Source: an uncultured archaeon (GTDB lineage Archaea > Thermoproteota > Nitrososphaeria > Nitrososphaerales > Gagatemarchaeaceae). From it: DNA of 64,000 nt. Made by a program: the position numbers and the translations under genes. Below are positions 34,502-56,200 of this stretch, piece by piece (the stretch's first letter is position 1; every line of letters begins with the position of its first letter). Where the stretch lies: contig CAWCYD010000002.1 in assembly GCA_963799775.1 (NCBI GenBank), forward strand, positions 160,001 to 224,000, given 5' to 3'. Below the pieces are notes generated by a model that had not been told where the DNA came from, ran no database searches, and saw only the letters and a program-made list of their open reading frames with translations.

Positions 34502-35426
34502 ATGCAAAAACTGCCCCGCGGAGGCCGCGAACAAAAGAAATGCCGTCGGCCGTCGGCCGTTGGAGCGCCTCTCGTGATCGCGGTCGTAGTGGCAATCCTG
34601 GCAATTACATTCTCCGGCAACGACTCGGTAACTTCTTCCTCTTCATCGACGGGATTGGGCTCCTTGAATTATTCTTCTTGCCTGATAGTCATCTACAACG
34701 GAACGATTACGGGTGACTCCACTAACGTCGCATTTCCTAATGGGACTCAGAATGAACCTGCCCATCACATCTTGTCAACGGTTCGTCCATCCGAGCGAGT
34801 ACGCGATGGTCATGACCATCGCACAGAATCCCGCGTTCGTCACCGCGGAAGACGGCTCGCTGTACGCATACGTCGGGACAGGCGGTTTCGGTTACAGCGA
34901 AGTCAACGGAACGGTGACCTGCTCTAGCGTGCTCCCAGATCCATCGGGCAGGGGCTACGTGACACAGGGTTGCTTCGTGACCACCGATGCCTTGTTCGAC
35001 CTGTTCAGCCCCACGGAGACCGTTTCGGGCTGCGGCATCACAGAGCCAAAGAACCTGGGAGAAATAGACGTGGCAATCCCTGTCAATGCGACAGGCGGCC
35101 TCAATCTGTCAAATCTCAGCGTCAGCAAGGTGCCCAGCGACGAACTGAATATCTTCACCTGCACGGTCCAGTCCACCTTCAGCCCCACCGTCTCCCTCAC
35201 CAACTCAACCACCACAATCACGACTGCGCTTAACGTCACCTCAGTCCTCAGCTCAACCAGTCTCCAGGCCGGCCAAGCTAGCGCTCAACCGCAAACCGAT
35301 GGCAGGTCGAACCCAGGGTTTCTTCCGGCTCTGGGGACCATCGTTGTAGCAGCAAGTGTAGTGGCGCTGGCCGTGATCTACTCGTTGCGTTCCCGAAAGC
35401 TTCACAGCTGGCTATTGAGGAGATAG
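34502..35426 (+). CDS. Cys-containing surface protein with N- and C-terminal TM (frameshift near 34740)
   Basis: Basic + hydrophobic leader, S/T-rich linker, C-terminal anchor; its TAG is the first 3 nt of repeat site 1. Confidence 0.7.
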
Positions 35427-35481
35427 CCCGTCCAGGGGCTGCACCTGTTTAGGGGCTTTTAGGGGGGAATTTGGCGCCCCT

Positions 35482-35904
35482 TCAGGCCAGCTTGACTGGG
35501 TCGATGGATTCGAGCCAATCGACCTTCTTCAGCGCTTCGTCGTGAGTCATTATCCTCTTCTCGCCAGCGTCGTCCATCATGGCCAAGAGCGTTGCGTCCC
35601 TGCCCCCAATGCCCAAGTGTGAGTACTTCTTCAGCATCTCTATTGCGCCGAGAGCGTGCCCGTAATCAAAGTCCGTTATGACCAGCGGGAATCGAAGGAA
35701 CTCGTCCAACTTCTCTCCGCCTATCGGAGCTCCTAGGCTCTTGACGAGGAAGTGGGCTAATTCCATCACGATTATTGTGTTTATCGCTATCTGCTCTGAC
35801 TTTAGGGCCTTCTCCACAGGCCCGACGACCGATTGATGCTCCGAACAGTCACTGTCAAAGTAGTAGGCCCAGATGTTCGTGTCAATGGTGATTATGGCCG
35901 ACAC
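35482..35904 (-). CDS. vapC: VapC PIN-domain toxin
   Basis: IDTNIW, E, RDATL, THD acidic residues. Confidence 0.9.
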   Translation of the reverse strand: MSAIITIDTNIWAYYFDSDCSEHQSVVGPVEKALKSEQIAINTIIVMELAHFLVKSLGAPIGGEKLDEFLRFPLVITDFDYGHALGAIEMLKKYSHLGIGGRDATLLAMMDDAGEKRIMTHDEALKKVDWLESIDPVKLA

Positions 35905-36133
35905 CCCAGATGTTCTTGAGGTCGACAGGCTTGATCTTCGAGCCGTGCACGCAGCCTCTCAGCTCTGAAATGAATTCGTCCGCACTTACCTCCGGCGAAA
36001 GCAGCAGATCCTTCCCTTTCTTGGATATTCTGAGTTTCTGTTCCGGTCTTAGTTTGAGTTCTGACCTTATCTCGTTCGGAATCACTATCCTTCCTCGCTC
36101 GTCTATGACTGCCTCGCCCATGAAAATTCCCAT
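35882..36133 (-). CDS. AbrB/MazE-type antitoxin
   Basis: IDERGRIVIPNEIRSEL. Confidence 0.9.
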   Translation of the reverse strand: MGIFMGEAVIDERGRIVIPNEIRSELKLRPEQKLRISKKGKDLLLSPEVSADEFISELRGCVHGSKIKPVDLKNIWGVGHNHH

Positions 36134-36382
36134 CCCATTTATTTTCCCGCTAGTACATAAACCTGTAGCCCGTTTCGGGGCTGCACCTGTTTAGGGGCTT
36201 TTACGCGGGAATCTTGCAGTCTTCGGCCGATGGCGTGCCCGGCAGGACTCGGGCTACGGTATTTTGAAATAACTAGTTCCAAAATGGAAATAACTAGTTC
36301 ACAAATTCCTTTGACAGCGGACTCCGTGCCCGAATATCATACTAAACAGTTAATAATCATGCAAAGCAACCCTAACCTCGCA

Positions 36383-37141
36383 ATGACAACTCACATGGAA
36401 CGGTACCAAGGCAAGAAAGTGGTGATCACCGGCGGCACCAGCGGCAGCGGGCTCGCCACGGCAAAGATGCTCCTCGACGAGGGTGCGCGTGTTCTGGTGA
36501 CGGGGCGGTCGCACGCTGGCCTGGAATCGGCGCAGAAAGAGATTGGAAAGGACGCCCTCGTGGTTTCTAGCGACGCGCGCTCATTGACGGACATCGACGC
36601 CCTCGCTTCTCGGGTGAAGGCCGAGTTCGGCACCTTCGACCTGCTCTTCGCCAACGCCGGATTTGCCCTCTTTGCCCCTCTCGAAAACACGACCGAGGCC
36701 ATGTACGACGAGATGTTCGATCTGAACGCCAAAGGACCGTTTTTCGCGGTGCAGAAGCTCGCGCCGCTAATCAACCGGGGGGGCGCTGTCGTCCTCACGA
36801 CCTCCGTCGCAAACGTCAAGGGAAGTCCCAACCAAGCGCCCTACGCAGCGTCCAAGGCCGCGCTGCGCTCATTTGCTCGCGTGCTCGCCGCTGAGCTTCT
36901 GCCCCGGGAGATTCGCGTCAATGCGGTAACGCCCGGTCCCATCGACACGCCGATCATCGGCAAAGTGTTTCCCGAGAAAGGCGCGGCCGCCCATGTCAGG
37001 GAGCGGACGATCAGTACTAATCCGATGAAGCGCTTTGGGATGCCGGAGGAAATTGCGAAGGCCGTCCTCTTCCTCGCATTCGACGCGACCTTCACCACCG
37101 GTGCCGAACTTCCGGTCGATGGCGGTTGGTCGCAACTCTGA
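36383..37141 (+). CDS. Short-chain dehydrogenase/reductase
   Basis: TGGTSGSG, NAG, YAASK, PGPIDT. Confidence 0.93.
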   Translation: MTTHMERYQGKKVVITGGTSGSGLATAKMLLDEGARVLVTGRSHAGLESAQKEIGKDALVVSSDARSLTDIDALASRVKAEFGTFDLLFANAGFALFAPLENTTEAMYDEMFDLNAKGPFFAVQKLAPLINRGGAVVLTTSVANVKGSPNQAPYAASKAALRSFARVLAAELLPREIRVNAVTPGPIDTPIIGKVFPEKGAAAHVRERTISTNPMKRFGMPEEIAKAVLFLAFDATFTTGAELPVDGGWSQL

Positions 37142-37415
37142 AAGCAGTACGCGAAATGCATCGAAACTTAATGTAATGAGCCAAGTGCGTTGACGGGCAC
37201 CGGTGAGTCACCCCTCAACGAACTCGGCAATCTTGTAGGTCTTCGGGCGCTTTGCGCCGTCCGATGACGGGTGCGATCGAATGTTCCATGGAGTCTCCGT
37301 GGCGAACAGTGAAGGTCGAGTCGTGAGGCCCCGCGAGGCCAGGGTCGGCTTGCTAATTACGGACCATTCGGTTATATATTGGTGCGATGGCAATTGTCCA
37401 AGAGTTTTAAATTAA

Positions 37416-38048
37416 ATGTCTCAAAATGACGCCAGGCCGCGTGGGCGGCCGCGCAGCTTCGACGAGAGGTTCGCGCTGGAAAAGGCGACCCAGGTATTCT
37501 GGTCGAAGGGCTACGATGGAGTGACGATCGACGATCTCGTCGCCGGGATGGGCGTGGGACGGCCGAGCCTGTATTCCGTCTTCGGAGACAAGCGGACGTT
37601 GTTCTTGCGCGTCCTTCGGGCGTACGCAGAGACGAAAGGCGCCCTCGCTGCGAAGGCACTGCTCTCGCCGCGCACTCTTCGCGACTCGCTCGCCGCCTTC
37701 CTGAGGCAGGCTGTAGAATATGCGACCCAGGAAGGATCCGCTCGGGGATGTCTTCTAGAGTGCGTCGCGCCGCTTGTGAACGATGCTGAGGTCCGGCAGT
37801 TCCTACAGAACGCGGCCGCTCACGCCGTAGGACTAGTGGAAGGTCGTTTCCGGGACGCGGTCAGCGCGGGCGAAATCCCGTCCGACTTTCCGGTGGCCAT
37901 CCGCGCAACCCAGCTCGTTGATTTTGCTCGTGGCCTTACCATGCGTGCGCTGATAGGCACGCCGCGCAAGACGCTTCTCAGGGATGCCGAGGAAGCGGCC
38001 GACTTGGTGCTCCTGCCGCGGCGGGGAAATGCGGCGCCAGAACGTTGA
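37416..38048 (+). CDS. TetR/AcrR regulator
   Basis: RGRPRSFD..FWSKGY..SLYSVFGDK, GCL. Confidence 0.92.
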   Translation: MSQNDARPRGRPRSFDERFALEKATQVFWSKGYDGVTIDDLVAGMGVGRPSLYSVFGDKRTLFLRVLRAYAETKGALAAKALLSPRTLRDSLAAFLRQAVEYATQEGSARGCLLECVAPLVNDAEVRQFLQNAAAHAVGLVEGRFRDAVSAGEIPSDFPVAIRATQLVDFARGLTMRALIGTPRKTLLRDAEEAADLVLLPRRGNAAPER

Positions 38049-38427
38049 TGCCGGCTGGGTGGCTATCGCTCGCAGGGTGGGAGGCCCCTTCAGCCGCAAC
38101 GTATTATTATGCAGACACTACGCGGGCACCAACCGCCGCCGCGGACGGCCCACCTCTTTCGCAGTGCAGGTCCACCCGGACGGACGTGGTGGCGGCGCAA
38201 GTTTGTGATCCAGGTCCGCGGAACAACGCCCAGTAGCTGGCTCGCGGGGTCCGCCCTCGACGGCGCTGCGTGCGCGTCGTCCAAACAGCCGAATCGTGAT
38301 GTGGTCGGAATTAAAGCTTTTTACGAAGCATTAGCTTAAATCGTGGCGTATTAGGCAAACAGAGGCTAAAATAGGTAGCCCGTCCAGGATTCCAAGCCTG
38401 TAGTTCGATTTGTCCCGGGTCTGTTTG

Positions 38428-38886
38428 CTAGCCGTCGCCGATTAAGCGGGAAACCTCCTTCTGAAATCTTTCGAGGAGGCTGTTCAGAGTCAGTAGTTCG
38501 TCCCTTGTAAACGTCACAAAAGCTTTCCCAACCATGTCTGCTTTCTTTATCGCGACCCTCTGGTACAGGGCCCTGCCCTCGGAGGTGATTTCGATGATGG
38601 TCGCTCTTCTGTCTCCCATGCCGGGCATCCTCCTGACCAGGCTCTTCTCCTCGAGCCTGTCCATTATGCCCGTGACATTGGCAGGAGTGACCAGCATCTC
38701 ATCGCTCATCTTCCTCATTAGCATGGGTCCGTTCCTTACGAGCAGGGAGAGCGCCAGGAACTGAGAATCCGATATCCCTTCGTGGGCGAACAATTTCAGG
38801 CCAGCGTGCCTCATCGCCTTGGATGTCGCTATGATGGCGTTGTAAGCCTCCTGATCTACTTCGGCTGTTCTCGCTCGCGCCGGCAT
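38428..38886 (-). CDS. MarR regulator (copy 1)
   Basis: VTGIMDRLEEKSLVRR..DRR. Confidence 0.9.
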   Translation of the reverse strand: MPARARTAEVDQEAYNAIIATSKAMRHAGLKLFAHEGISDSQFLALSLLVRNGPMLMRKMSDEMLVTPANVTGIMDRLEEKSLVRRMPGMGDRRATIIEITSEGRALYQRVAIKKADMVGKAFVTFTRDELLTLNSLLERFQKEVSRLIGDG

Positions 38887-39001
38887 GGTCTGCCCGGCGC
38901 TTGTTTTAGATATAAATAGTTAGGCTATCGCTGGTTAAGACATATACGGTTGTAGTACCGATAGTCAAGACATAAATAGTTAAGGCCTTAACGGTTCTGC
39001 C

Positions 39002-39987
39002 ATGGAGAACCAGCACAAAGACGAGATGCGTGCCGTAGCGATAGACAGTTTCGGCGGTCCTGAGGCTCTTTCGGTTAGAAACGTCCCCGTGCCGGAAGTC
39101 GGGCCAAATCAAATCCTTGTCCAGGTCGAATCCGCAGGAATAGGTGTGTGGGATGTTGCAGAACGAGAGGGAATGCTTGTGAGAATGCTCGGAATCCAGC
39201 CCAAGTTCCCATGGGTGCTTGGCTCGGAGGGTGCGGGCAAGGTCGTAGCGGTCGGGGAGAAGGTCACCGGGTTCAGGAAGGGAGACCTGGTTTACGGCCA
39301 TGTGTGGGGGACAAATCCAAAGGCAGGATTCTACGCTGAATATACGGCCCTAAACGCGGACCAGGCGTGTCCGATTCCTTCCACGATACCAATCGAACAG
39401 GCAGGGGCCCTGCTCATCGATGGAGGAACCGCGCTGCGAGGGCTTGGTGACAATCTGGCCCTGAAGCAAGACGAAAAGCTGATGGTCTTTGGTGCGAGCG
39501 GAGGAATGGGGCATTTGGCAATCCAACTTGGCAAGCGACTCGGGGCTCGAGTGTTTGCCATAGCCTCGGGTGAAGACGGTGTAGCTCTCGCCCGACGGTT
39601 GGGAGCTGATGTTGCAGTAGACGGGCATAATGGGAAAACATAGAGGCTTCAGCCCGCGAGTTTGCCCCGAATGGTTTCGATGCGGCCTTGGTTACAGTTG
39701 GTGGCGAAGCCCCTGAAAAGGCGCTCACCGCTATGCGTGAAGGAGGACGGGTCGCATATCCCTGGGTCAATCAGCGTCCTGCTCCAAAGGCGCCGTCGAC
39801 CGTTCGCCTATTTGGCTACAATGGGAACCCAGATCGAGCGTTGGTGATCAAGCTCAACAAACTAATCGAGTCCGGCGCGTTCGAGGTGCATCTTGGCGGG
39901 ACCTTCACGCTTGATCAGGCAGTCGATGCCTACCATGCAGTAGGCTCACACCATCTGGGCAGGTTAGCTCTGCTCCCAACAAGATAG
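39002..39987 (+). CDS. NADPH:quinone reductase-like MDR oxidoreductase (copy 1; frameshift near 39635)
   Basis: FGGPE, LGSEGAG, GASGGMG. Confidence 0.9.
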
Positions 39988-40287
39988 TCAAGCGACAATC
40001 AATCATATCAGGATTCTCGGGCTGAGCATTCAGGGCTATTGAATTGGAATAGCCCGTCCAGGATTCGTACCTAGAAACTCTCGGGGAGTGCTGCTTCGAC
40101 GCTGCGAGAAACTGGTCACTCTACGACCAAGGCTACCGAACCACCACAATCTTGGTCGATGTTGAAAGCTAAACGGCACATTGCGACCCGAATCCTCCTT
40201 AGGATGGAATCGGATAGAACATTCTCTCCAACCTGTTAAGAGCATCCGGGCGCAGCATTTCCTTGCCAAAGGGGAGAATGAGGGAGA

Positions 40288-40434: not shown

Positions 40435-40528
40435 CCGACCAAGACTCGGCCGGCAAAGGCTGGCACAGGTGCCTACGACAGGCCAGGCTTGCTACTAGTC
40501 GTGGAGGCTTTGCCCCGATGAGTCGTTC

Positions 40529-40972
40529 CTACTTGGGGATAGCCATCGACTGCCAGACGCGATACACCTTGTCCGCTACGTCCACGTTGGGCGTGACTCG
40601 GACCTTTAGATTCTCGGACTCGAGGTCAATCCTGACTTCGCTGAAAGCGCCCCTGTAGATCGAGTACCTCTTTCCGATCGGAGTCAGCACTATCCTCTCC
40701 ACCACGACGACCCCTTGGTCGACGAGCTCGTGGACCCTCCTGTAGGCGGTGCTTATTGGGATGTGGTTCTCTGAGCTTATCGCCTCTATGGTCTTCCCCT
40801 CCAGTATTGTCGAGGTCATGATCTTCCGGGAGAACTTGTCGGACATCGCCTCTAGGATGGCTTGAGCCACCTCGGGAATCGCTACGTCTCGGCACTCCAG
40901 AATGTGTTGCTGCCGTTGCTCCAGCGCGTACCTTCGCATCGCTGTCGGCTCCGCCACCGTTGCTGCTTGCAT
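40529..40972 (-). CDS. ArsR-like HTH protein
   Basis: SDKFSRKI, IPISTAYRRVHEL. Confidence 0.85.
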   Translation of the reverse strand: MQAATVAEPTAMRRYALEQRQQHILECRDVAIPEVAQAILEAMSDKFSRKIMTSTILEGKTIEAISSENHIPISTAYRRVHELVDQGVVVVERIVLTPIGKRYSIYRGAFSEVRIDLESENLKVRVTPNVDVADKVYRVWQSMAIPK

Positions 40973-41076
40973 GGCAATGCATGGGTTGCGAGAGGGTATC
41001 TCGATTAGCCCTAGCCGGCTAGGGATGGGCGACGCAGACGGACATATCGCCCCTCATAGGTCTCCACAGGCGGAGC

Positions 41077-41739
41077 CTACGAGCCGCTTCCTGCCTGGGA
41101 AGCGGCCTGGGATTCGAGGAAGCTTCCGAGGATCTTCTTCTCCGCCCTCCTGAGGATCTCGTTCAAGGTGCTCGACCTTATGCCGAGCTTTGCGGCGAGC
41201 TCATCCTGAGTGATGCGCCTGGGGAAGTCGTAGAGGCCCAGCTCCATCGCGGACTTTAGCACACTGAACTGCCGGGTCGTCAGGTTGATGTCTTCGGTGA
41301 CTTGGGATATCTCGGTCACCTTGTAGCCGATCCCGCCGCTCGAGAGCCTGTTGAGCAGGGCGGGGACTCCATCGATGTTCAGGAACAGCTTGTAGCCAAC
41401 CAAGCAATCCTCCGAGGTCGCCGCGGAGGAGATGAAGGACGCGAGGTTCGACTCTATCAGGGACTTGCACACCCTGCATCCGCTGCTCATCACGACGCCC
41501 ATGAGATGCCCCCTCGCCAGCTCGGTCAACTCCACGCTCTTTACGTCGCTAGAGTTGCTCAGCCATTTCCTGGCCTGCTCGACGGAGTCCTCGTTCTTTA
41601 TGGAGATGTCAACGAAGTGGGCGATTTGATGGCCCCTGTCCAGCGATTTCAATCCAAGGATCTTGACATGGGCTGAGAACTCCTCGCACAGCCCCGTGGT
41701 CCACCGGTCCGAGCCGGCGACGAAGCGGAGCTGCATCAT
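41077..41739 (-). CDS. Bacterio-opsin-activator-type HTH regulator
   Basis: LTTRQ..AMELGLYDFPRRIT..LRRAEKK. Confidence 0.88.
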   Translation of the reverse strand: MMQLRFVAGSDRWTTGLCEEFSAHVKILGLKSLDRGHQIAHFVDISIKNEDSVEQARKWLSNSSDVKSVELTELARGHLMGVVMSSGCRVCKSLIESNLASFISSAATSEDCLVGYKLFLNIDGVPALLNRLSSGGIGYKVTEISQVTEDINLTTRQFSVLKSAMELGLYDFPRRITQDELAAKLGIRSSTLNEILRRAEKKILGSFLESQAASQAGSGS

Positions 41740-41851
41740 CCAACCCCTTCGCCGCGATTCGGAATATATTAGGAATTCTCACGACTTTCGGGGTTCGTTC
41801 GTGTAATCCCAAACAAGGCATAACTACCTCCGGTGGTCTACTCATGTTCGG

Positions 41852-42706
41852 TTGAAGATCAGGGACGCGCTTCCCCGCATATTTCAAAAGGCCTACCCTG
41901 CGATAGACCCCAAGACAGAGATCCTTCCAGCGATGTCGCTCTTGCGGTTCCACGAGATCGACGCTCTCCCTCTCGCCTTCGAGCCGGGTTCGAGCCGGAC
42001 GAAGGACAGGCAGAAGGCCGTCTACGGCTTCTCGAGCCTGGCCAGGCTGATGCTGCTGAAACCCAAAGACATCGCGTCCTTCCTAAAGAAGCCCTGCGAG
42101 GTCGCCTCGGAACCGATCGCCTCTGTTAGCGCCGACCGCGACATGTCGAGCCTCTTGGACACCTACGCCAGGACTCGATTCGGCTTCGCTCGGGTAGAGG
42201 ACAAGAAGAAGGTCGGAGCGCTGGCTGGCCTGACGGACCTTCTCGAGCTGTATGAGACGGGCGGGCTCGCAACGGAGCTCAACGCCGTCGATGTCGGGAC
42301 GCCCATCGTGTCAGTGAAGGCCGACACCCCTCTCAGGAACGCTCTCCAGATGATGTTCGAGAAAAGACACAGGAGGATCTTCATCTCGGGCGGCAGAGAA
42401 TTCGTCTCGGACCGGACGATAATCGATCACATATTCAGTCCAGGCATCCTGAGCGCGATGGCGAACAGGGGGGACGACGTCCTGAATATCCCGGTGTCCT
42501 CGGTCGGGATGCTATCCGCTAAAGAGGTCGAAGAAGACACGCCTCTCGCAGACGCGGCCAAGGAACTGAGGGCGCAGCACGCCGGACAGTGCCTCGTGTT
42601 CGATGGCCACGTTGTGACGCCTTGGGACATCGTCATGAAGCCCTGGAATCAGGGTGCGCTGAAGCTCGCAAGCGCATCCGACTCGCGACGATCCAAGCGG
42701 AATTAG
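41852..42706 (+). CDS. CBS-domain protein
   Basis: Repeated CBS-like segments (DTPLRNALQMMFEKRHRRI). Confidence 0.8.
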   Translation: MKIRDALPRIFQKAYPAIDPKTEILPAMSLLRFHEIDALPLAFEPGSSRTKDRQKAVYGFSSLARLMLLKPKDIASFLKKPCEVASEPIASVSADRDMSSLLDTYARTRFGFARVEDKKKVGALAGLTDLLELYETGGLATELNAVDVGTPIVSVKADTPLRNALQMMFEKRHRRIFISGGREFVSDRTIIDHIFSPGILSAMANRGDDVLNIPVSSVGMLSAKEVEEDTPLADAAKELRAQHAGQCLVFDGHVVTPWDIVMKPWNQGALKLASASDSRRSKRN

Positions 42707-43022
42707 TGCACGAGCCGGTCCTCTGAGGAGAGATTCTTTCGCCAAGGGCGAATCTAATCGAGCATCACAACAAAAGGCCGAGAAGGAAGAAGCACAACGC
42801 CTGCCAGGGCTGACCACACGAAGCTCTGCTTGTCGAGCTTGTTCCATCCGAATACGACCGGTTTGAGTCTGGAGAAGACCATCCATTCTGCGAACGCCGA
42901 GACCCCGAAGATCAAGAGCATGGTGTGCGAATGCGCGATGCCAACTTCAGAAGGGTCAGCCTCCGCGCGAGGGTGCTCGAATGTATATATCGCATCTTGC
43001 AAACCATTAGGGCCAACTAGTT

Positions 43023-43946
43023 TTGATTGAGACCGAGAACCTCACGAGGAAGTTCGGTGACCTGACAGCGGTCGATGCTGTGACCTTCCGCGTGGAGGAA
43101 GGAGAGGTCTTCGGCTTCCTCGGACCGAACGGAGCAGGGAAGACGACCACGATCCGGATGCTCTGCTGCCTGATATCGAAGACCAGCGGGAAAGCCAGCA
43201 TCGGGGACTACGATGTAGGCAAAGATTCGGACGCGCTAAAGATAAGGAAGCTCATCGGACTGGTCCCTGACAACGTAGGACTCTACGACGATCTGAGCGC
43301 CTACGACAACCTGGATTTCTACGGGAAGCTCTACGATTGCACGGAAGCGCAGAGGAAGGAGAACATCCAACGCTTCCTCACCATGCTGGGGCTCTGGGAG
43401 AAGAAGGACGTCGCGGTAGGAACCTTCTCGAAAGGCATGAAGCAGAAGCTCGGGATCGCGTGCGCTCTCGTGCACGACCCAAAAGTGCTCTTCATGGACG
43501 AGCCCACCGCGAACCTCGACCCCGAGTCGGCGAAGACCGTCAGGGACTTCATCCTGGACTTGAAGAAGGAGAAAAGGACCATCTTCCTGAACACCCATAA
43601 CCTCGACGAAGCGCAGAAGATTTGCGACAAGATCGCGATCCTAAACACGAAGCTGATGGCGATCGGCACCCCAGAGGAGTTAGAGCGCTCGGCAAGCGGG
43701 AGGACGACCGTCGTCCAGCTGGTGCAGGTGAGCGACGCGATCCTTGCCGCTCTCAGGAAGCTGCCGGTCAGAAACATGGTGGTCGAAGGCAACAAACTGA
43801 CGTTCGACGTCATGGACCCGGAAAAGGAGAACGTCGCCATCGTGGACGCGATATACGGCGCCGGCGGCCACGTCCAAACGGTCACGGTCGTGGGCTCGAC
43901 CTTGGAGGAGGCCTACCTCAAGCTAGTGAGGCTCGACGAAAAATGA
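43023..43946 (+). CDS. ABC transporter ATP-binding subunit
   Basis: GPNGAGKTT, FSKGMKQK, DEPT. Confidence 0.93.
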   Translation: MIETENLTRKFGDLTAVDAVTFRVEEGEVFGFLGPNGAGKTTTIRMLCCLISKTSGKASIGDYDVGKDSDALKIRKLIGLVPDNVGLYDDLSAYDNLDFYGKLYDCTEAQRKENIQRFLTMLGLWEKKDVAVGTFSKGMKQKLGIACALVHDPKVLFMDEPTANLDPESAKTVRDFILDLKKEKRTIFLNTHNLDEAQKICDKIAILNTKLMAIGTPEELERSASGRTTVVQLVQVSDAILAALRKLPVRNMVVEGNKLTFDVMDPEKENVAIVDAIYGAGGHVQTVTVVGSTLEEAYLKLVRLDEK

Positions 43947-44688
43947 GACTCTCGAAATCGTGGATTATCGCGTCGAAGGATTTCAGGGTGTTCACGAAGA
44001 AGAAGAACATACTCTACTCGATCATCGTCCTCCCTCTCATGGTCTCGTGCCTTCTTCCGGGTGTGGTGGCGTACGCAGGGCACAAGAATGGCGCGAGCGG
44101 AATCTCAGCGGCGGAACTCACTGTCCTCCTCCCCTCATTCACTTTCTTGTACCTCGTCATCGCTGGCGTTATCCCAAGCACCATCGCCTCCTACACCATA
44201 GTGGGCGAGAAGGTCGAGAAGAGCCTCGAGCGTCTCCTTGCCACGCCTACTACCGATGGCGAGATCTTGCTCGGGAAGGGGATTGCGGCCTTCCTGCCGC
44301 CGATTGCGTCCATCTTGGGGGAGCTACGATCTTCATGGTCCTCATGGACCTGGTGACACGTGGAACGCTCGGGTACGACTTCTTCCCCAACTGGAACGCG
44401 GCCATCGTCCTCTTCGTTATGGTCCCGTTCGCGGTGATCATGAGCGTGGAATGGAACGTCGTCGTCTCTTCGAGGGTGAGCGATGTGCGGGCCGCACAAC
44501 AAATCGGAGCGCTCATTGTGCTCCCCCTCGGGGGCATCTACCTCACGGGCGAGCTCAACTTGGTCTCGCTCGGCAACACCAGCAACCTCCTCATCATCGC
44601 CGGCGTCCTTCTGGCCCTTGACTTGATTCTCCTCTACGTCGCCAAGGCCACGTTCCGCAGGGAGGAGATACTGACAAAATGGAAGTAG
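43943..44688 (+). CDS. ABC-2 permease (frameshift near 44320)
   Basis: IVGEKVEKSLERLLATP..ILLGK; multiple TM. Confidence 0.88.
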
Positions 44689-45310: not shown

Positions 45311-45311
45311 G

Positions 45312-46890
45312 CTAGGCCCCGTTGACTGTGTCCGAAGCAGCGCTAGAGGTCGCGCCGTTGTCGGCGTCACCAGCGAACGAAGCTAGGATGTCCACGCTAC
45401 CCTCGGCCCTTCCCCTCACTGTGACGGCGCAGGTCGGACCTGATGGGCCGCAGGTAGATGATGAGAAGGCGCTCCCGGTGCCTCCGAACTGCGGCCATGT
45501 CATCATCTCGCCCGATATCGAACCGCAGCTGTCCGATACGGCCGCGGTGAAGGTCGTGCCGCCTGCGGCACGGGGGAAGAGGTGCCGCCCTGCGTGGTCG
45601 TTGTGGTAGTGGTAGGCGGAGTTATCGCCAGGCCCTTGGTGACGTTGCTCGAGGAGAAGTCCGACGTGTCCGGGCCGTAGGTCGCCGTGACAGCGGCACT
45701 GCCAGACGTAACCCCAATCACTGTAACAGAGCATGAACCATTCAAGAGGGTGCAGGTGCTGGGGGAGAAAGCGACTCTGCCCGTGTCAGCGGAGACAGCG
45801 GACCAGGTCACAGAACCGCTTGGCGTCTGGCCCCCGTCTGCGACAGTCGCGGTGCAGGTCATGCTACCTCCCATTGTGATGGCGTAGGTTGGACAGCTGA
45901 ACGAGGTCGTGGTGGGAATCGAAGTCACTGTGAGCGTGAGCGTCCCTGAGCTGCCATCATTGCTAGAATCCGCCGGATAGGACGCTTGGATGACGGGGTT
46001 GCCCACGCCCGTACCGGCCACTGTGACGGAGCAGCTCATGCCTGAAAGGTTGCAAGTGGAGGAAGAGAATGAGGCGCTCCCGTTTCCTCCGGACTGGGAC
46101 CATGTTATCGTCTCGCCCGATATCGAGCCATAACTTCCCGAGACGGTCCCCGTACACGATGTTGTGGCGTAGGCTTTGACCGAGTCAGCTGTGCACGATA
46201 CCGTTGTCGTGGTGGAGGCAGGGGATATCGAGAGCGACTCGGTGCCGTAGCTGGAGGACGAGTCAGACGTTGCAGGTCCATAGGTGGCCATCATGGTAGC
46301 GTTCCCGCTGCCGACGGCGAGGCCCATCACCGTCACCGAGCAGGAACCGGCAGAAAGAGTGCAGTTGCTCGGCGAGAAGGACACCATGCCTGTCCCTGGG
46401 GGAACCGCGGACCACGTCACGGAACCGGCAGGCGTCTGGCCCCCGTCCGCCACTGTTGCAGAGCAAGTGGCGGTCGAACCCACGGCGACCTTGTCGGGAC
46501 TGCAGCTCACAGTCGTGGTGGTCGCGGCTGCCGTCGTTGTGGTGCTGCTCGAAGACGATGTGCTGGTACTAGTCGTGGTCGAGCCGGTAGCTGTGGTGGT
46601 TCCCGCTGAGGTGGCAGTCGACGTCGTCGATGGGATTGTGGAGCTGGTCGAGGTCGTCGATGCGGCCGTCGAGCTCGTCGACGTGGTAGTTGAGCTGGTG
46701 GCTGAGCTCAATATTGTGGAGCTGGGGGACGTCGTCGTAGTCGAGGTGAAGGAGGATGTCGCAGTCGATGTCACGGTCGTAGTGCTGGGAGGCCCGGAGA
46801 TGAGTGATGCGACGCCTACTCCTACCGTCACCAATACTACGATCATCACGGAGATGACGGGAACGGTTGTGATGGCTGCCGACCGGCGGC
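45312..46890 (-). CDS. Ser/Thr-rich surface protein with four Cys-containing Ig-like repeats (frameshift near 45570)
   Basis: TTTVSC..C.ATV..G.VTWS..FS.S.C.L..CSVTV repeats in an A-B-A-B pattern after a TM and S/T linker. Confidence 0.82.
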
Positions 46891-47375
46891 TATTTCTTAC
46901 GTTTCTCGAGTCTCTCGGATACTCCTGAATAGACCAGCAGCATTACGAACAATACCCCCAGAATCGCCGCGGCTAACAGATCTGAACCAGCGGCAGAATT
47001 GTTGTCGAACGAGTAGATCACATAGGCGGCGAAACAAGCCAGGGCGGTGAGCCCGGTGAAGTAGATGTTCTCACGGTCCATCGATCCATAGAGTTCCACG
47101 GACTCTGGTAATCGGAGCTTGTTCTTCGTCAAGAGGATGTAGTAAAGCACCTGCATTACCGTCAGGAAGAGCAAGATTGTCGCCCCGGTCTCAGTTTCAT
47201 CGATCATCTCCGAGCCTGCGTTGGAGAGGATGGAGCCGAGTAGAACGACCAAGGTGGCGCAAAATGAGAATATTGCGACCAGCGCGTTATCGTGAGCCAG
47301 ATTCTTCCTGAATTTCCCCTCTATCCTAACGATAGACTGCTCGTTTTCAGCCTGCATCTCATCTGCGGGCTTCAT
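46890..47375 (-). CDS. Four-TM membrane protein
   Basis: Hydrophobic helices; may be the frameshifted N-terminus of the adjacent surface protein. Confidence 0.65.
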   Translation of the reverse strand: MKPADEMQAENEQSIVRIEGKFRKNLAHDNALVAIFSFCATLVVLLGSILSNAGSEMIDETETGATILLFLTVMQVLYYILLTKNKLRLPESVELYGSMDRENIYFTGLTALACFAAYVIYSFDNNSAAGSDLLAAAILGVLFVMLLVYSGVSERLEKRKK

Positions 47376-47589
47376 CAGGGCGACACATGGCGGACTTTTG
47401 ATTTATGAGATTTAAGGGATATGTTTTGGATTTTGGTTCCAGGTGACGTAGAATTCGTCGATGATGTAATCGAGGAGGTAGCCCGTCCAGGATTCGAGGC
47501 GCCTGGTTCGATTTGTCCCAGACCGACCGCCCATTCTTCTGCTTTCTTGCCTGAGCTTGGGAGAGTGCAGCGTCGGCATCGCCTGGTCG

Positions 47590-48057
47590 TTAGCTTTCGC
47601 CACTCGAGCGAGACGTTTCCCCTTGGAATCTTTCAAGCAGGCTGTGCAGGGTCATCAATTCGTCCTTTGTAAACGTCGCAAGTGCCTTTTGAAGCATCTC
47701 GGCCTTCTTTATGGCTACTCTCTCGTACAGGGACTTCCCGTCGGGGGTAATCTCAATGACCGTCGCTCTCCTGTCTCCTTTCCCCGGTGTTCTCCTGACT
47801 AGTCTCTTCTCTTCCAGTCGGTCCATTATGCCTGTGACATTGGCAGGAGTGACGAGCATCTCATCGCTCATCTTCCTCATTAGCATCGGTCCATTGTTCG
47901 CAAGAAGGACGAGCGCCAGAAACTGAGAGTCAGTTATTCCCTCGTCCGCGAACAGTTTCAGCCCGGCATGTCTTACCACCTTCGATGTCGCGATAATCGA
48001 GTTGTACGCCTTTTGCTCCACCTCGGCCCTTTCCATTCTTGTGGGCACAGGCAGCAT
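47590..48057 (-). CDS. MarR regulator (copy 2)
   Basis: Shares GPMLMRKMSDEMLVTPANVTGIMDRLEEK with 38428-38886. Confidence 0.92.
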   Translation of the reverse strand: MLPVPTRMERAEVEQKAYNSIIATSKVVRHAGLKLFADEGITDSQFLALVLLANNGPMLMRKMSDEMLVTPANVTGIMDRLEEKRLVRRTPGKGDRRATVIEITPDGKSLYERVAIKKAEMLQKALATFTKDELMTLHSLLERFQGETSRSSGES

Positions 48058-48162
48058 GGGCTATTTTAGATATAAATAGTTAAGCCCTCTGTAGTCTGGA
48101 CATACACAGGCTAACTATTAATAGTCAAGCCTTAAATAGTTAAGGTGTTAATCATCACACCC

Positions 48163-49182
48163 ATGTCCGAGCAGCAAAAGCTGAAGCCAAAAGACGAGAT
48201 GCGTGCCGTAACGATAGACCGCTTCGGCGGTCCGGAGACGCTTTCGGTCAGAACCCTCCCTATGCCGAAACCTGGGCCGAATCAGGTCCTGATCCAGGTC
48301 GAATCAGCCGGCATCGGGATATGGGATCTCGCTGAATTGGGAGGAATGCTTGCTCAAAGAGCTGGAATCAAGCCCAGCTTCCCCTGGACGCTCGGCTCGG
48401 AAGGTGCGGGCAAGATCGTGGCAGTCGGACAGAAGGTCACGGGGTTTAGCAAGGGAGACCTAGTTTACGGCATTGTGTGGGGGACAAATCCAAAGGCGGG
48501 ATTCTACGCTGAATATACGGCCGTGAACGCGGACCAGGCGTGGCCGATTCCCTCGACAATAACGGCCCAAGAGGCGGGGGCGCTGCTCATTGCTGGAGGT
48601 ACCGTCCTGCGAGGGCTGGACGACAATCTGAATCTGAAGAAGGGCGAAACACTGTTGGTCTTCGGCGCGAGCGGCGGTTTGGGGCACTTGGCCATCCAAC
48701 TTGGCAAGCGCCTCGGGGCCAGGGTGTTCGCTATAGCCTCGGGGGAGGACGGCGTGGCTCTTGCCCGAAGGTTAGGAGCTGAGGCTGCTGTGGATGGACA
48801 TGGAGGAGACATTCGCGCTCCGGCCCGAGAGTTCGCCCCGGATGGTTTCGATGCGGCCTTGATAACGGTTCGAGGGCAGGCTGAAGGGGCGGTCGAGGCC
48901 GCTGAAAGCGCTCTCACCACATTGCGCGAAGGTGGACGTGTGGCATATCCCTGGACAGACAATTTCAGACCGCCCCCGAGAGTCCCCTCAAGCGTTCGTC
49001 TGCATGGCTACATGTTAGGGAACACCGATCGGGGTCTGGTCATCAAACTCAACAAACTGATCGAAGCCGGCGCGTTCGAGGTGCATCTTGGCAGGACGTT
49101 CACCCTCGAACGGGCAACTGATGCCTACCAAGCTCTAGGCTCACACCATCTGGGCAGGTTAGCTCTGGTCCCAACAAGATAG
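48163..49182 (+). CDS. NADPH:quinone reductase-like MDR oxidoreductase (copy 2)
   Basis: Close paralog of 39002-39987. Confidence 0.92.
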   Translation: MSEQQKLKPKDEMRAVTIDRFGGPETLSVRTLPMPKPGPNQVLIQVESAGIGIWDLAELGGMLAQRAGIKPSFPWTLGSEGAGKIVAVGQKVTGFSKGDLVYGIVWGTNPKAGFYAEYTAVNADQAWPIPSTITAQEAGALLIAGGTVLRGLDDNLNLKKGETLLVFGASGGLGHLAIQLGKRLGARVFAIASGEDGVALARRLGAEAAVDGHGGDIRAPAREFAPDGFDAALITVRGQAEGAVEAAESALTTLREGGRVAYPWTDNFRPPPRVPSSVRLHGYMLGNTDRGLVIKLNKLIEAGAFEVHLGRTFTLERATDAYQALGSHHLGRLALVPTR

Positions 49183-49364
49183 CCAGGCGACAACCAATCA
49201 CATCAGGATTCTCGGGCTAAGCATTACGAGGGCTATTGAATTGGAATAGCCCGTCCAGGTATATAACGCAACGGTTTGAATCCGGATTCGGTTCGATTCG
49301 TCCCTTCGACCGTGGGGCTCACGGAGAAGCCGCGACAAGCTTTAGGAATGCGTTGACAATTTGT

Positions 49365-49664
49365 TCATAGAGGTTCATTTTTCATGCGGCCGATACTCAT
49401 TCTGACCAAGCCTTGGCTGACGCTGAAGACGCGGTCCACTTTCGCCTTGCTGTCAACAATCAGTTTGCCCGTCTCCAACCCTTCGTTGGTGACCAACACG
49501 GCGTATTCTCGGTATCTCAGGTTAGAAGTCAAAGGAACAGCCACGAAGTCTTCCGAGCGGCGATTGTAGCTGTCGTTTGACAGGACTACAGCAGGTCGTA
49601 CCTTCGATGTCCGGAGATCGGAAAATGGAAACGAGAGAAGTACTATCTCGCGTTGTGTTACCAA
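49365..49664 (-). CDS. mazF: MazF/PemK toxin
   Basis: FPFSD..KVRPAVVLSND, VPLTS; C-terminus may be shortened. Confidence 0.88.
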   Translation of the reverse strand: MVTQREIVLLSFPFSDLRTSKVRPAVVLSNDSYNRRSEDFVAVPLTSNLRYREYAVLVTNEGLETGKLIVDSKAKVDRVFSVSQGLVRMSIGRMKNEPL

Positions 49665-49665
49665 C

Positions 49666-49950
49666 TCAACGACGTCCCTTCAGATACTCGTCCCACACGT
49701 CCTCCCCTTTTTTGAGCCAAATCTTCTTCAGCGACTCTTCACCAAGGCCCTGTAGGTCCGCGAACTCACCTTCCAGGATTTCGTTGATTTTCTCGGGCTT
49801 CTCAAGGACTATCTTACGACCCTTTCTAATCAAGAGAAGTTCGTCGCCTCTTGATATGCCGATTTCCCTCTGGATATCAATCGGTATCGAGATTTGCCCC
49901 TTGTCGGAAACCTTGACCTTCTTGAAAGTCAATTCGTCGGCCTGGGTCAT
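49666..49950 (-). CDS. AbrB/MazE antitoxin
   Basis: KVSDKGQISIP; C-terminal EDVWDEYL. Confidence 0.88.
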   Translation of the reverse strand: MTQADELTFKKVKVSDKGQISIPIDIQREIGISRGDELLLIRKGRKIVLEKPEKINEILEGEFADLQGLGEESLKKIWLKKGEDVWDEYLKGRR

Positions 49951-50639
49951 GCTGTATTGAAGTAAGGAAATCCTTACATAAATAGCTTTGGAACATTCGC
50001 TCGCAAACGCCGACGGGGCGGGCTGAAAGTGTGTGATAGCCCGTCCAGGATTCGAACATGAATGGGTTCTTGGTTGCTGAAGGAGAATTACGCCGATATG
50101 GACCGGCGAGGACTTCGAAGTCAGAAGAACCTCAAGTCCTAGCGCCCTTCAATACACGAACCCCGACTACTACGATTACAGTAATGACGACAACTAAGAG
50201 TTAGTCCGAAAAACCAAGAGGAAAGAAGAGATTCTCCAAAGTCAGGTCGGCAAACCGAAAGTGTTGTGCATGCCCGCCGCCAAGCTCGTAGAGGCTGTTC
50301 AGACTAGGGTCAGGAATCTGGTTTTGGATGGCTGAGATTCGACCACGGTCTGCCCGTCAAGACGCGTGCTGCGATTACTACGGCCATTATGATTACTGTG
50401 ATTACAACGATTAAGACTACTGTTGAGGAAGCAACCAACCCGCAATCAACGCAAGGGCCCTGACCGCACGAATATATCTTTGCTTTCGGTCAGGAATGCG
50501 ACTTTGAAGCGTTTTGAATCAGTTGCCCTACTCCCCCGCGATTCTCTCATGACTCCGTAATTCCCTCCCGATTGCCGTGCCCCACCACAACAGGTAGTGG
50601 TCAAGTGTGGCTACTTAGAACCAGTCCGGAAAATATCAC

Positions 50640-50830: not shown

Positions 50831-51266
50831 CCTCCTGGCATGTGGCCCATGTATCCCCACGCCTCGACGAGCTCGTCTATCTCTGGCTCGTGGAAAGCAC
50901 GCTAGGCACTGTGATGACCGTCTCCACCGTCGCGATCCTCATGATGGTCTATCGTTTCCCGGCAAGATTCTTCGTGGTCGTAACGTTGGCGTGGGACTTT
51001 TCCTATCGGCATCGTTCGCTCTTGGGTTTCCGGTCAGCGTCCTCTCAAAGCTGCCGAACTTCCAGGTCACACCTTCGGTCTACAACACTGTGCTCTGGGT
51101 GAACCAAATCGAGTTCTTGGGCTGGCTTTACTTTGCGTCCGTCCTCCCTGATCTGTCTGCAATATTTCAGAGTGAAAGAGTCTGGCAAGAGTAACATCCA
51201 GGTGGACTATAGTCGCTAACTCTCACTGCAGGTGCTTTTAATGGACCTATTTTTAGCGGGCCCGGC

Positions 51267-53709: not shown

Positions 53710-54084
53710 CGGACGCTCTTCGAGACTAGGTATTTTTGGGCTGTCCTTACGTCGAAGGATGCAGAGACCACGAAGAAACTCAAGGCAATCTTCGAAAAGG
53801 CCAAAACTCCCTTCGCGTCATCGGTCAGCATCTACGAGATATACAAACAGACGCTCGAACATGATGACAAGGCAGTGGCAGATCTCCGCACTCGTACAAT
53901 CACAAATGAATACACCATCGTCGACGTAAGTGCCGAGATAGCGGAAGAAGGAGCAAGGATAAGCCACAGACTGAGAATTCCCATGGCAGATTCGCTCATC
54001 ATGGCCACTTCCAAGAGTCTGCGCGTTTCCTGTGTTACAGATGATCCGCATTTTACTGAAGTAAAGCGCGTGTGGATAAGTTGA
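53710..54084 (+). CDS. VapC PIN-domain protein with no clear start codon
   Basis: LFETRYF..SIYEIY..PMADSLIMAT..VTDDPHF, in frame directly after the antitoxin stop. Confidence 0.75.
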   Translation, partial: RTLFETRYFWAVLTSKDAETTKKLKAIFEKAKTPFASSVSIYEIYKQTLEHDDKAVADLRTRTITNEYTIVDVSAEIAEEGARISHRLRIPMADSLIMATSKSLRVSCVTDDPHFTEVKRVWIS

Positions 54085-54195
54085 GCGGGCCCGACGAGTC
54101 CGCCCCTGAACCGGTTCTCAAAGTGGATTCAGAGTGAGACTGCGCCGTCCCTAGGGGCCGGCCTCTGGCCTTCGCATTCCTCACCAGATTGCCAG

Positions 54196-54585
54196 TTATG
54201 GATTGAGTAGGGCGACTGCACCTTCTATCTCTCCTACCTTTCGGATATCAAAGTCTGGGCGTGCCCCGACAAACGCGCATCTTCCGCCGGAAGCATTGAT
54301 ACTCAATAATGTGATCTTGTCGCGAAGGATTATTGCGGTGCGTGACGGTCCCAACAACTTGTCCGCCGTGTCGTCAATCCCCCGGACGACGGCCCAGCGC
54401 CTGGCCAGCAGTTCGACATCGCTCTTGTTCCGGAGCAGGCTCTCGCTTCCCGGCCGCGACCTTGTCGCTCGGATGTCTCCCTGGGAGCTGATAATCACGC
54501 AGAACATTATCGCGTCGTCCATCGAGCATATTCGCTCAGCAAGCTCAGACTCACCGACTTTCCCTGGTTCTGGTCTTGGATTCAT
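54196..54585 (-). CDS. Small roadblock/profilin-like protein
   Basis: ICSMDDAIMFCVIISSQG..R.G pattern typical of thaumarchaeal small proteins. Confidence 0.6.
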   Translation of the reverse strand: MNPRPEPGKVGESELAERICSMDDAIMFCVIISSQGDIRATRSRPGSESLLRNKSDVELLARRWAVVRGIDDTADKLLGPSRTAIILRDKITLLSINASGGRCAFVGARPDFDIRKVGEIEGAVALLNP

Positions 54586-54867
54586 TTTCCGAGCACTCTC
54601 TGCTTGCTAACCTTGACAGAGGCTCCAGAGTTCGTCAATTGGTTGGACTCCAGATTGCAACCTGCTCGTTGGCTAAAGCTGCGTTCTTGTCGGTCAACTC
54701 ATCAGGCGGAAATAGCAGGTCGTGATATTTACGTAGTCCGATTCAGTGCGACATGCTCGTCATGGTCCAACAGAGTTCAGATTGAGCTATTATTAGCGGG
54801 CCCGACGGTACGCCTGCCCGCACGAGTCGAAGCCCCGCCGTTATTAGGAGAAATCCCCCGGAATGGC

Positions 54868-56200
54868 GTGACCTCCAAGCCGCAGCTGTTCCCGAACAGC
54901 AAGTACAGACACCTGCTGGAAGACGAAGCCTTCGCCTCGTGGATAGAGAACATCGCAAGAGGAAGCAAGGTGAACGCCGAGGTCACACTGCGCAGAATCG
55001 GGAGGATCTGCATGCTCCTTCAGACGACGCAGAAGGACCTGGCCGTCATGTCCAAGGGAGAGGCTGGGGCCTTCCTGTTCAGGGTGGTCTCCCGCATGGA
55101 GAGCGACGGGAACAGGAGCTCGACCATCGCCGGGTGCGTCAAGCAGCTGAAGGGGTGGTGGCGCTTCAACGACCTCGAGGTGACGAGGCAGGTGAGGCTC
55201 GCCAGGGACGTGGGGGTGTACGACAACGAGCGCGTCCCCTCCCACCAGGAGCTTCACTCGATCTTCGAGCACGCTGACCTCCAGAAGAGGGTCGCCTGCG
55301 CCCTGATGGCGTTCTCCGGCGTCAGGCCGGGGGTGCTGGGGAACAGGGACGCGAACGACGGCCTGATGGTGTCAGACCTGCCTGAGATGGTGATAAGGAA
55401 AGGCGACGCGGGACAGGACAGCGTCGAGTTCCTGAAGGTGCCTGCCATGGTGATCGTCCGGAGGACGATCTCCAAGACGGGAAGGCAGTACATCTCCTTC
55501 CTGCCCGAGCAGGGGTGCGGCTACGTGCGGCAGTACCTGGAGTGGAGGATGCACGTCCTGAAGGAGAAGATCGAGGGTGCCTCCCCGTTGCTCACCGCCA
55601 ACCAGTTCAACCCCCGCTACATCGGCAGGTTCGTCAGGGTGTGCAACGTGAGCGACGCGGTAAGGCACGCGATCAGGGCCGCGGGGTTCGGCTGGAGGCC
55701 TTACGTCCTGCGGAGGTACTTCGACACGAGGATGATGGGCGCGGAGCAGGAGGGGAAGGTCATCAAGGACTACCGCGTGTTCTGGATGGGGCACACCGGG
55801 GACATCGAGCACGTCTACACGCTCAACAAGGGAAACCTCCCCGACGGACCTGCTCGAGGGGATGAGGCAGGCCTACGCGAAGGCCTCCGAGAAGCACCTG
55901 GCGACCCTGGTCCAGGCGAGCATAAGCAGGGACGAGGTCGTGAACACTGCGCGGGCCGAGGCGCTCAAGATGTTCGGCTACACGGACGAGGAGCTCCTGG
56001 GGGTCGGCGACATCACCCGGATCACGATGGAGCAGCTCCAGCAGCTCATCCACGATAGGTCGAAGCAGATGCTCGGGCTGAAGGAGGGGACGCAGAAGGT
56101 CGTGCCCGTCGCGGACCTCGAGCGCTGGATAGAGCAGGGGTGGGACTACAAGCGGGACCTGCCCGACGGGAGGGCCGTGATAGGGCTGAGGACTGCCTAG
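54868..56200 (+). CDS. Tyrosine recombinase/integrase (frameshift near 55845)
   Basis: SGVRPG (R), ISKTG (K), YVLRRYF (H/Y-xx-R), MGH, HVY (Y). Confidence 0.92.

Follow-up and report, generated by a model that had tools for sequence, protein, structure and literature searches.

A gene-cassette array with tRNA-Gln-derived junctions, probably mobilised in trans, in an uncultured Nitrososphaerales archaeon

Introduction

Integrons and the clusters of attC sites lacking an integron integrase (CALINs) consist of small, discrete cassettes without a recombinase, with one recombination site at each junction and toxin-antitoxin cassettes interspersed; content and order vary between relatives, and CALINs have no integrase beside them. 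These traits recur in the array that is the subject of this report and in similar ones, many of which likewise lack an adjacent integrase. The array occupies positions 35424 to 50049 of a 64,000-nucleotide stretch, referred to below as the window, of contig C2 in the genome assembly (2.47 Mb, 3 contigs; G000) of an uncultured archaeon of the Nitrososphaerales, and it is divided into units by a repeated 13-mer, TAGCCCGTCCAGG, that corresponds to the 3' end of tRNA-Gln. Other traits set it apart from an integron. No intI gene stands beside the array, and its junctions, made of TAGCCCGTCCAGG and arms with two inverted repeats of 5-6 bp, are not attC sites when judged against the attC box consensus. 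A tRNA gene, instead of attI, serves as the insertion point. The cassettes exceed those of integrons in size (median 1.5 kb, maximum 6.8 kb), and instead of being promoterless and co-oriented the cargo occupies both strands and brings its own regulators, divergent regulator-enzyme pairs among them, with no shared Pc promoter. Archaeal integrons were described in 2022; these are canonical, with attC and IntI, and the text makes no mention of tRNA (bioRxiv 10.1101/2022.02.06.479319).

Repeated tRNA 3' fragments are also the mark of successive insertions of tandem islands at one tRNA gene. Such repeats are found in archaea and in the tycheposons of Prochlorococcus (PMC6563490, PMC8371274, bioRxiv 10.1101/2020.12.28.424599), and the att cores of Thaumarchaeota are typically short, with a median of 17 bp (PMC6563490). 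The arrays described here share these direct repeats and, in relatives and on metagenome contigs although not in the window, an intact tRNA gene at one end. They differ from tandem islands in that their units measure 0.4-7 kb, that none of 76 cassettes contains an integrase or replication gene or a remnant of one, and that several species share units whose ends are identical.

In mechanism, the closest parallels are modules that lack a recombinase and are moved in trans: the cis-mobilizable elements (CIMEs) of streptococci, the integrative mobile elements exploiting Xer (IMEX) and the pdif modules of Acinetobacter. These are likewise site-bounded modules that are shuffled by a recombinase encoded elsewhere and carry toxin-antitoxin and accessory cargo. 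The units described here are also flanked by att-like sites and devoid of recombination genes, but their sites are tRNA-derived and apparently not dif-like, they are directly repeated in one orientation, and the host is an archaeon. No published description of such arrays was found in the accessible main text of the literature searched. The array is a variant of site-specific gene capture; it is neither an integron nor served by the integrase gene next to it. We consider it probable that its cassettes are mobilised in trans and recombine through a core supplied by the 3' end of tRNA-Gln.

Results and Discussion

Seven exact copies of TAGCCCGTCCAGG are present in the window, all on the + strand, at 35424..35436, 38376..38388, 40050..40062, 45128..45140, 47479..47491, 49247..49259 and 50037..50049 (junction sites 1 and 3 to 8). 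Junction site 2, at 36166..36178 on the same strand, has a degenerate core (TAGCCCGTTTCGG, 3 mismatches) and retains the conserved right arm. Successive cores are spaced by 742, 2210, 1674, 5078, 2351, 1768 and 790 bp, in agreement with a first reading made from the sequence only, which had counted eight co-oriented copies and given the same unit lengths. With up to 2 mismatches allowed, 12 matches were obtained against 2.07 expected (sd 1.30), a number reached in 0 of 100 shuffles. Genome-wide the 13-mer has 8 copies, the seven of the window and one, in reverse complement, at the 3' end of the intron-bearing tRNA-Gln(CTG) gene on a different contig (C3:783577-783674). The core corresponds to the T-stem, the acceptor 3' strand and the discriminator of this tRNA, so the proposed derivation of the repeat from a tRNA-Gln 3' end holds when the sites are matched to the tRNA set of the genome itself. 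No recognisable tRNA was detected in the window by ARAGORN, and Rfam, applied to positions 30000-60000 with E values up to 1, returned 0 matches.

Sixty relatives were screened for the exact core, including 22 other genomes of the genus (23 with G000; G-numbers denote genomes), and a metagenome scan with the core plus GGCTG (an 18-mer) yielded 51 loci from soil and peat (L-numbers). The first unit, of 742 bp, is a vapBC cassette (35482..36133, - strand) that encodes VapC (PIN domain, 35482-35904) and an AbrB/MazE-type antitoxin (35882-36133). It was recovered in 8 contexts including the window, with different neighbours and the same boundaries on both sides. Its identity to the window copy is 96.0% in G018, 94.8% in L101, 94.2% at a second locus of G017, 93.5% in the main array of G017, 89.5% in G008, 85.9% in G013 and 84.2% in L092. 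In windows of 30 nt, identity is 0.10-0.43 over the 150 nt to the left of core 1, rises to 0.63-1.00 (mostly above 0.85) from core 1 to core 2, and falls to background beyond. The second unit (36230..38048, + strand; a short-chain dehydrogenase/reductase (SDR) at 36230-37141 and a TetR regulator at 37416-38048) is 93% identical to a cassette of G017, and the alignment begins at the core. An ABC-transporter cassette at the tRNA-Gln gene of G000 is 90.6% identical to one in G022, from 2 bases before one core through the last base of the next core; past this aligned cassette, G000 continues into the tRNA and G022 into one more cassette. Flanking chromosomal DNA of the same genome pairs is 73-82% identical, far below the cassettes. 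The order of units is permuted in G017, where the main array reads [vapBC][K] and the second locus [K][vapBC]. Coverage of the cassettes by Logan contigs, which are short and come from further studies of soil and peat, is uneven, and some pieces begin or end at cores (35433-36172, a start at 38376, an end at 40062); parts of the interval 35300-45200 occur in nine soil or peat sequencing runs, with a best share of 0.29.

These data bear directly on the possibility that the locus is a graveyard, in which full elements with their own integrase once entered at tRNA-Gln, decayed by internal deletions that left only the cargo, and have since been inherited vertically. Reuse of tRNA att sites in tandem and loss of the integrase after integration are described in archaea in two studies (PMC6563490, PMC8371274), a third describes Prochlorococcus islands with scattered partial tRNAs and fragmented integrases (bioRxiv 10.1101/2020.12.28.424599), and the window itself holds a decaying integrase in its tRNA-Lys island. 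Even so, we regard a graveyard as unlikely: integrase fragments are present in 0 of the 76 cassettes, the 742-bp cassette keeps the same two-sided boundaries in 8 contexts with different neighbours, cassette identity far exceeds that of the flanks, cassette order is permuted among genomes, and both arms are kept at nearly every junction. That cassettes recur at different positions, with identity above that of their flanks and with homology ending at the cores, favours mobile cassettes over a graveyard. The sequence-only reading had named three outcomes that would count against cassettes (sites matching no tRNA, a fixed order in relatives, units with ragged ends); none of them was seen, and in related genomes units have been gained, lost and reordered at the sites while the boundary on either side of a unit is conserved.

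Alignment of sites from G000, relatives and metagenome contigs gave a junction site of ~80 nt in which the core is flanked by two arms. The left arm is loosely conserved (consensus about GGTAAACAGAG..AGAAATGAGGAGA), and the right arm falls into a few recurring types. Of the 131 sites whose flanks are complete, 52 have type X1 (GGCTGCACCTGTTTAGGGGCTTTTAGGCGGGAATTTGGCGC), 30 type X2 (GGCTGCACCTGATTAGGTGCGAATCC), 6 type Y (ATTC..GGTTCGATTTGTCCC) and 11 the body of a tRNA as right flank; the remaining 32 are unclassified, and some of these are probably unrelated chance matches of the 18-mer. In the window, the left arm of site 1 begins at ~35414 and its X1 right arm extends to ~35484; site 2 also has an X1 arm, sites 3 and 6 a Y-type arm and site 5 an X2-type arm. 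The core of site 8 is followed by ~21 nt resembling the tRNA-Gln body, and its right flank resembles another right-arm type, found at L062:3183. With up to 2 mismatches, the X1 arm is present in 4 of the 23 genus genomes, all of them array-bearing.

The X1 and X2 arms begin with GGGCT and thereby form, with the core, the sequence AGCCC-GTCCAG-GGGCT, a pair of 5-bp inverted arms around a 6-nt spacer. This first inverted repeat (AGCCC-N6-GGGCT) is paired in 93.8% of cells and is invariant, so that its pairing is uninformative. A second one, GCNCCT-N4-AGGNGC, is paired in 79.4% of cells over 65 distinct sites and shows clear covariation at one position, with C-G in 22 sites and A-T in 21. The earlier remark that no attC hairpins were seen, taken as a statement that hairpins are absent, was consequently too strong. 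The layout fits the core region of a tyrosine-recombinase site, with modest structural support.

Two adjacent short hairpins beside a tRNA-like 3' end might also be expected of a functional RNA or regulatory element, for example a tRNA-like processing signal or a terminator between operons, and not of a recombination site. This explanation is hardly credible here. The orientation of the sites is constant while cargo open reading frames (ORFs) lie on both strands, Rfam returned no match in the searched interval, and the homology breakpoints between genomes coincide with the sites.

The units might also be exchanged without a dedicated recombinase. If the ~80-nt sites were old att scars, ordinary homologous recombination between them, and with incoming DNA, could shuffle the units; the sites are direct repeats with an exact 13-nt core and similar arms, and no recombinase has been found. 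We judge this unlikely, and slightly less probable than a graveyard. A patch of 13 nt is very short for homologous exchange. The breakpoints fall at the 13-nt core and not elsewhere in the arms, and the arms travel with their own cassette. Furthermore, the exact core is kept in 102 of 138 profile matches (nhmmer), every one of these sites being on one strand, while the arms drift, which suggests selection on the core.

The other units of the window, with families assigned by Pfam, are as follows. Cassette 3 (38428..39987, both strands) encodes a MarR regulator (38428-38886, -) and a zinc-dependent alcohol dehydrogenase (Zn-ADH, +) that is split into 39002-39643 and 39688-39987. Cassette 4 (40529..44688, both strands) carries two helix-turn-helix regulators, one of the HTH_10 family, on the - strand and a CBS-domain protein, an ABC ATPase and a permease on the + strand; diverged ABC cassettes are present in other arrays. 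Cassette 5 (45181..47375, -) contains a ParE/RelE-like C-terminal remnant, a 448-aa protein with immunoglobulin (Ig)-like repeats and a 161-aa ORF without a family match. Cassette 6 (47590..49182, both strands) again holds a MarR regulator (-) and a Zn-ADH (+), here intact at 345 aa, and cassette 7 (49365..49950, -) encodes MazF (49365-49664) and MazE (49666-49950). Cassettes 3 and 6 are paralogs of ~77-83% identity, and their similarity begins and ends at the cores. The gene content first proposed for the units was upheld by these assignments, as was the claim that none of them contains an integrase. Since the cassettes have their own regulators and divergent promoter regions, a shared promoter is absent. 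The gene for the Ig-like protein has internal direct repeats of ~605 bp that are 73-79% identical (window 45467-46470).

The exact core was found in 9 of the 60 relatives, 8 of which are among the 22 other genus genomes. Six of these 22 (G017, G008, G018, G020, G022 and G013) have co-oriented arrays in which the exact core occurs 2-8 times. The array of G017, with 8 exact cores, comprises 12 profile sites over ~20 kb. In at least G017, G008 and G018 the last site of the array is an intact tRNA-Gln(CTG) gene, as called by ARAGORN, followed by the genes for arginyl-tRNA synthetase and tRNA-Arg(CCG), and in G020 and G022 tRNA-body sequence continues from the last site. At the tRNA-Gln locus of G000 itself, on C3, there is the single ABC-transporter cassette mentioned above, bounded by a degenerate site 1.9 kb away. 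Arrays make up many of the 51 metagenome loci, the longest being L101 with 10 sites, while L089 has 8; tRNA-Gln forms the end of several. Most arrays with a recovered end abut an intact tRNA-Gln gene. This gene is the usual home of the arrays, and the window array is a secondary location in a tRNA-Lys island. The intron of tRNA-Gln(CTG) varies among these loci: in a comparison of C3:783577-783674 with L006, L009, L011, L073 and L077, it measured 23 nt in G000 and 26-27 nt in two metagenome contigs, and it is missing from the genes of G017, G008 and G018.

A census of 27 arrays, each with at least 2 sites, gave 76 cassettes of 442-6752 bp (median 1518 bp), mostly with 1-2 ORFs. By a crude longest-ORF rule with a minimum of 60 aa, 197 cassette ORFs were counted, 109 on the + and 88 on the - strand. 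Most cargo proteins are singletons; the classes represented are toxin-antitoxin pairs, regulators, transporters and enzymes. Pfam families in 20 of the largest foreign cassette ORFs include a P-type ATPase, ABC transporters, Zn-ADH and an amidohydrolase, together with an AlkZ-like glycosylase, an aminotransferase and a MOFRL glycerate kinase. One of the 20 is the flanking arginyl-tRNA synthetase, taken in through a weak site call.

The tyrosine integrase gene that is transcribed away from the array (54868..56200, + strand) had been put forward as the enzyme of the array. Its ORF contains the motif RPYVLRRYF...MGHTGDIEHVY (RRY..GH..Y, read by eye), matches the phrog_1 integrase (E=4e-4) and has 565 database homologs, several of which are named site-specific integrase (Nitrososphaerales/Nitrososphaerota) and several of which have PF00589. 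No direct Pfam match, no match among PDB sequences and no integron-integrase match were obtained, and NCBIfam matches were at chance level only. By its homology to Phage_integrase-type catalytic domains, the product is predicted to be a tyrosine recombinase. Comparison with paralogs shows a +1 frameshift near 55841, past which the C-terminal ~100 residues continue in the ORF 55862-56200, and the gene is a pseudogene. Three integrase paralogs in G000 each lie ~50 bp downstream of the 3' end, or a fragment, of tRNA-Met or tRNA-Ile. At C3:47860-47925, one paralog adjoins a 3' fragment of tRNA-Ile that stands alone, away from the intact gene. With the copy at the real tRNA-Ile gene it shares 90% identity, which reflects either a second integration or a rearrangement.

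The site that flanks the integrase gene of the window is of another type. The sequence AGCGGGCCCGACGG at 54795..54808 (+) is the reverse complement of the tRNA-Lys(UUU) 3' end, as it is in the closest relatives of the integrase. Thirteen bases of this core are repeated at C2:235270 (window-equivalent 75270), and the tRNA-Lys(UUU) gene lies at C2:237724-238043. With an att core that matches the tRNA-Lys(UUU) 3' end and is repeated 20.5 kb away, the integrase is part of an element of ~20.5 kb at tRNA-Lys, of which 54795..54808 is the distal direct repeat. The idea that this integrase, or a family of relaxed specificity to which it belongs, works on the array from a place like that of IntI beside attI has some attractions: the family does target tRNA 3' ends, Lys- and Gln-type sites are co-oriented within one island, and some cargo is common to arrays of different tRNA types. 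We nevertheless consider it improbable. The flanking core is that of tRNA-Lys(UUU), with its matching repeat 20.5 kb away; the gene is frameshifted here and differently frameshifted in the ortholog of G017, a syntenic copy of 93% identity broken at other positions; and the last Gln site lies 4.8 kb away, with three other sites in between. A family member was not found near Gln arrays in relatives or on metagenome contigs. Of the proposed integron-like platform, the match to a real tRNA and the gain, loss and reordering of units are supported, and the role of the adjacent integrase is not.

A second site family, AGCGGGCCCG(G/A)C, is present at 51255, 54084 and 54795. The sequence-only reading had seen in it a continuation of the array pattern; sites do extend to 54795, but they are reverse complements of tRNA-Lys(UUU)/Arg(TCG)-type 3' ends and not of tRNA-Gln. 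The first of them (51255..51266, +; AGCGGGCCCGGC) has the left flank CTATTTTT and is of Lys/Arg type, and the second (54084..54097, +) is a Lys-type site with 1 mismatch, followed by the arm CTGAACCGGTTCTCAAAGTGGA. The signature of the Lys/Arg-type site is AGCGGGCCCGRC plus the arm CTGAACNGGTTCTNAAAGTGGA. A degenerate site lies near 53362, and the arm CTGAACNGGTTCTNAAAGTGGA follows the sites at 53362 and 54084. Two of the small units bounded by Lys/Arg-type sites are in the opposite order in G017, a hint of similar behaviour in the Lys and Gln families. A short GC hairpin and then CTGAACNGGTTCTNAAAGTGGA occur beside Lys/Arg-type cores at window 53362-53405 and 54084-54127, at C3:1229280-1229322 and on contig C7 of G017; this combination is probably the right arm of the second family of cassette sites.

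The conserved left flank of the region ends near window position 34290, and the distance from there to tRNA-Lys(UUU) is ~8 kb in G011 and ~43 kb in G000, which places the Gln array inside a tRNA-Lys island. The variable island, downstream of tRNA-Lys(UUU), runs from window 34290 to window-equivalent 77724 (C2:194290-237724) and includes a site family of its own and one full-size element with an integrase. Its content is different in G017, and no Gln-type site was found in the syntenic island of that genome. At its left edge, the stretch 34126-34273 (- strand) is conserved in relatives and resembles, by eye, an intron-broken tRNA with GCGGGTTCGAAATC and a CTGTCAC loop; it is possibly tRNA-Asp(GTC), although it was called by neither ARAGORN nor Rfam. 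The ~4.6 kb after the integrase (window 56470-61050) are absent from the otherwise 92-97% identical element of G017, which indicates an indel inside the tRNA-Lys element.

The recombinase that would act on the Gln-type sites was searched for in several ways. Nine queries, namely 4 integrases of the window family and 5 PF00589 recombinases of G000, were compared with the 27 arrays and their 76 cassettes by tBLASTn, and only the window's own integrase was returned, so that the arrays do not have the one integrase per unit that would be expected of islands. A PF00589 search of 5 array-bearing genomes gave nothing near the arrays, Pfam revealed no recombinase in 20 of the largest foreign cassette ORFs, PHROGs had no match for 9 Pfam-negative cassette ORFs, and no conserved protein was found at the distal end of the arrays. 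The regions upstream of 31 integrase loci contained the 3' ends of tRNA-Met, tRNA-Ile, tRNA-Lys and others, and never that of tRNA-Gln. Scanning 65 recombinase loci for near-core sequences gave 16 matches, of which only L036:611, 0.9 kb from a partial integrase, is site-like; it was not used. At none of the integrase loci does a Gln core occupy the place of the family's att site. Scans of viral contigs with the core plus right arm and with the tRNA-Gln 3' end gave 0 matches each. The gene beside tRNA-Gln was considered as a recombinase and rejected, as it encodes the arginyl-tRNA synthetase. G000 also has a XerA-like gene at C3:9007-10008, in a lineage that is not known to have dif sites, two Zn-ribbon recombinases (C3:120901 and C3:1384682) and a further recombinase at C3:490327. 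An integrase-like gene for 421 aa at C2:20272-21534 is 86-97% identical in 5 genus genomes, with a conserved spacer; the product of the gene directly before it ends in ...PYEFYLYFDI and appears by eye to be a glutamine synthetase.

Several points weigh against trans-mobilised cassettes with a tRNA-Gln core. Neither a recombinase with the Gln core nor an autonomous element that could be the parent, sharing the att site and encoding the cognate integrase, was found in the 23 genus genomes, the 51 metagenome loci and two scans of viral contigs, and the presence of three candidate recombinases across the 23 genomes is unrelated to that of the arrays; all genomes are metagenome bins of 54-96% completeness, however, so that absences, that of the recombinase included, are weak evidence. 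The window array is not at a tRNA gene. Covariation support for the inverted repeats is weak, with one covarying pair. Neither a circular cassette nor an empty site was directly seen. In Logan contigs, joints with sides of less than ~55 nt at 90% likeness were excluded as evidence of circles, and the joints of the "goes back" kind have short sides, such as repeated sites in other organisms could also yield. Finally, cargo found beside Gln-type sites in L036:187-556 and L098:799-1167 is also found beside an Arg(TCG)-type site of G000 (C3:1228882-1229229). Arrays of different tRNA types thus seem to exchange cargo, which lies outside the prediction of a strict one-core model.

In the mechanism that we favour, a circular cassette with one ~80-nt site would recombine through the 13-nt core with the tRNA-Gln 3' end or, alternatively, with any site already present in an array. 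The reaction would be catalysed by a tyrosine recombinase encoded elsewhere, and the outcome would be co-oriented arrays that gain, lose and reshuffle units. A broader proposal, which we advance tentatively and with less confidence than the trans-mobilisation itself, is that the system is an independently evolved archaeal counterpart of the integron, with a recombinase that is unlinked or carried by a transient element, tRNA-Gln as landing pad, and circular cassettes of 0.4-7 kb, each with a structured ~80-nt site, circulating among soil and peat species of the Nitrososphaerota and assembling into shuffled arrays of toxin-antitoxin, regulator, transporter and enzyme genes; the tRNA-Lys and tRNA-Arg sister families would work alike. 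If the cassettes are mobile in this way, a group of soil and peat archaea would own a modular gene-capture system that works in the manner of an integron with other components, namely sites derived from a tRNA and a recombinase encoded at a distance. Such a system would account for the spread of small accessory genes among species with a core-genome difference of ~20-25%, and it would point toward a recombinase with a compact, defined target. A co-oriented array of tRNA 3' ends with conserved arms provides a signature with which similar systems can be searched for. The locus also calls for caution, since the nearest integrase need not serve an array of att-like repeats.

Cargo with similar behaviour may extend beyond the last Gln-type site. 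The 390-aa ORF at window 51267-52439, which has no family match, was present in 5 of the 5 relatives searched, in unlinked places and with 84-90% DNA identity; being more alike than core DNA, it probably also represents mobile cargo. In one Logan contig this ORF is fused directly to the end of a vapBC cassette.

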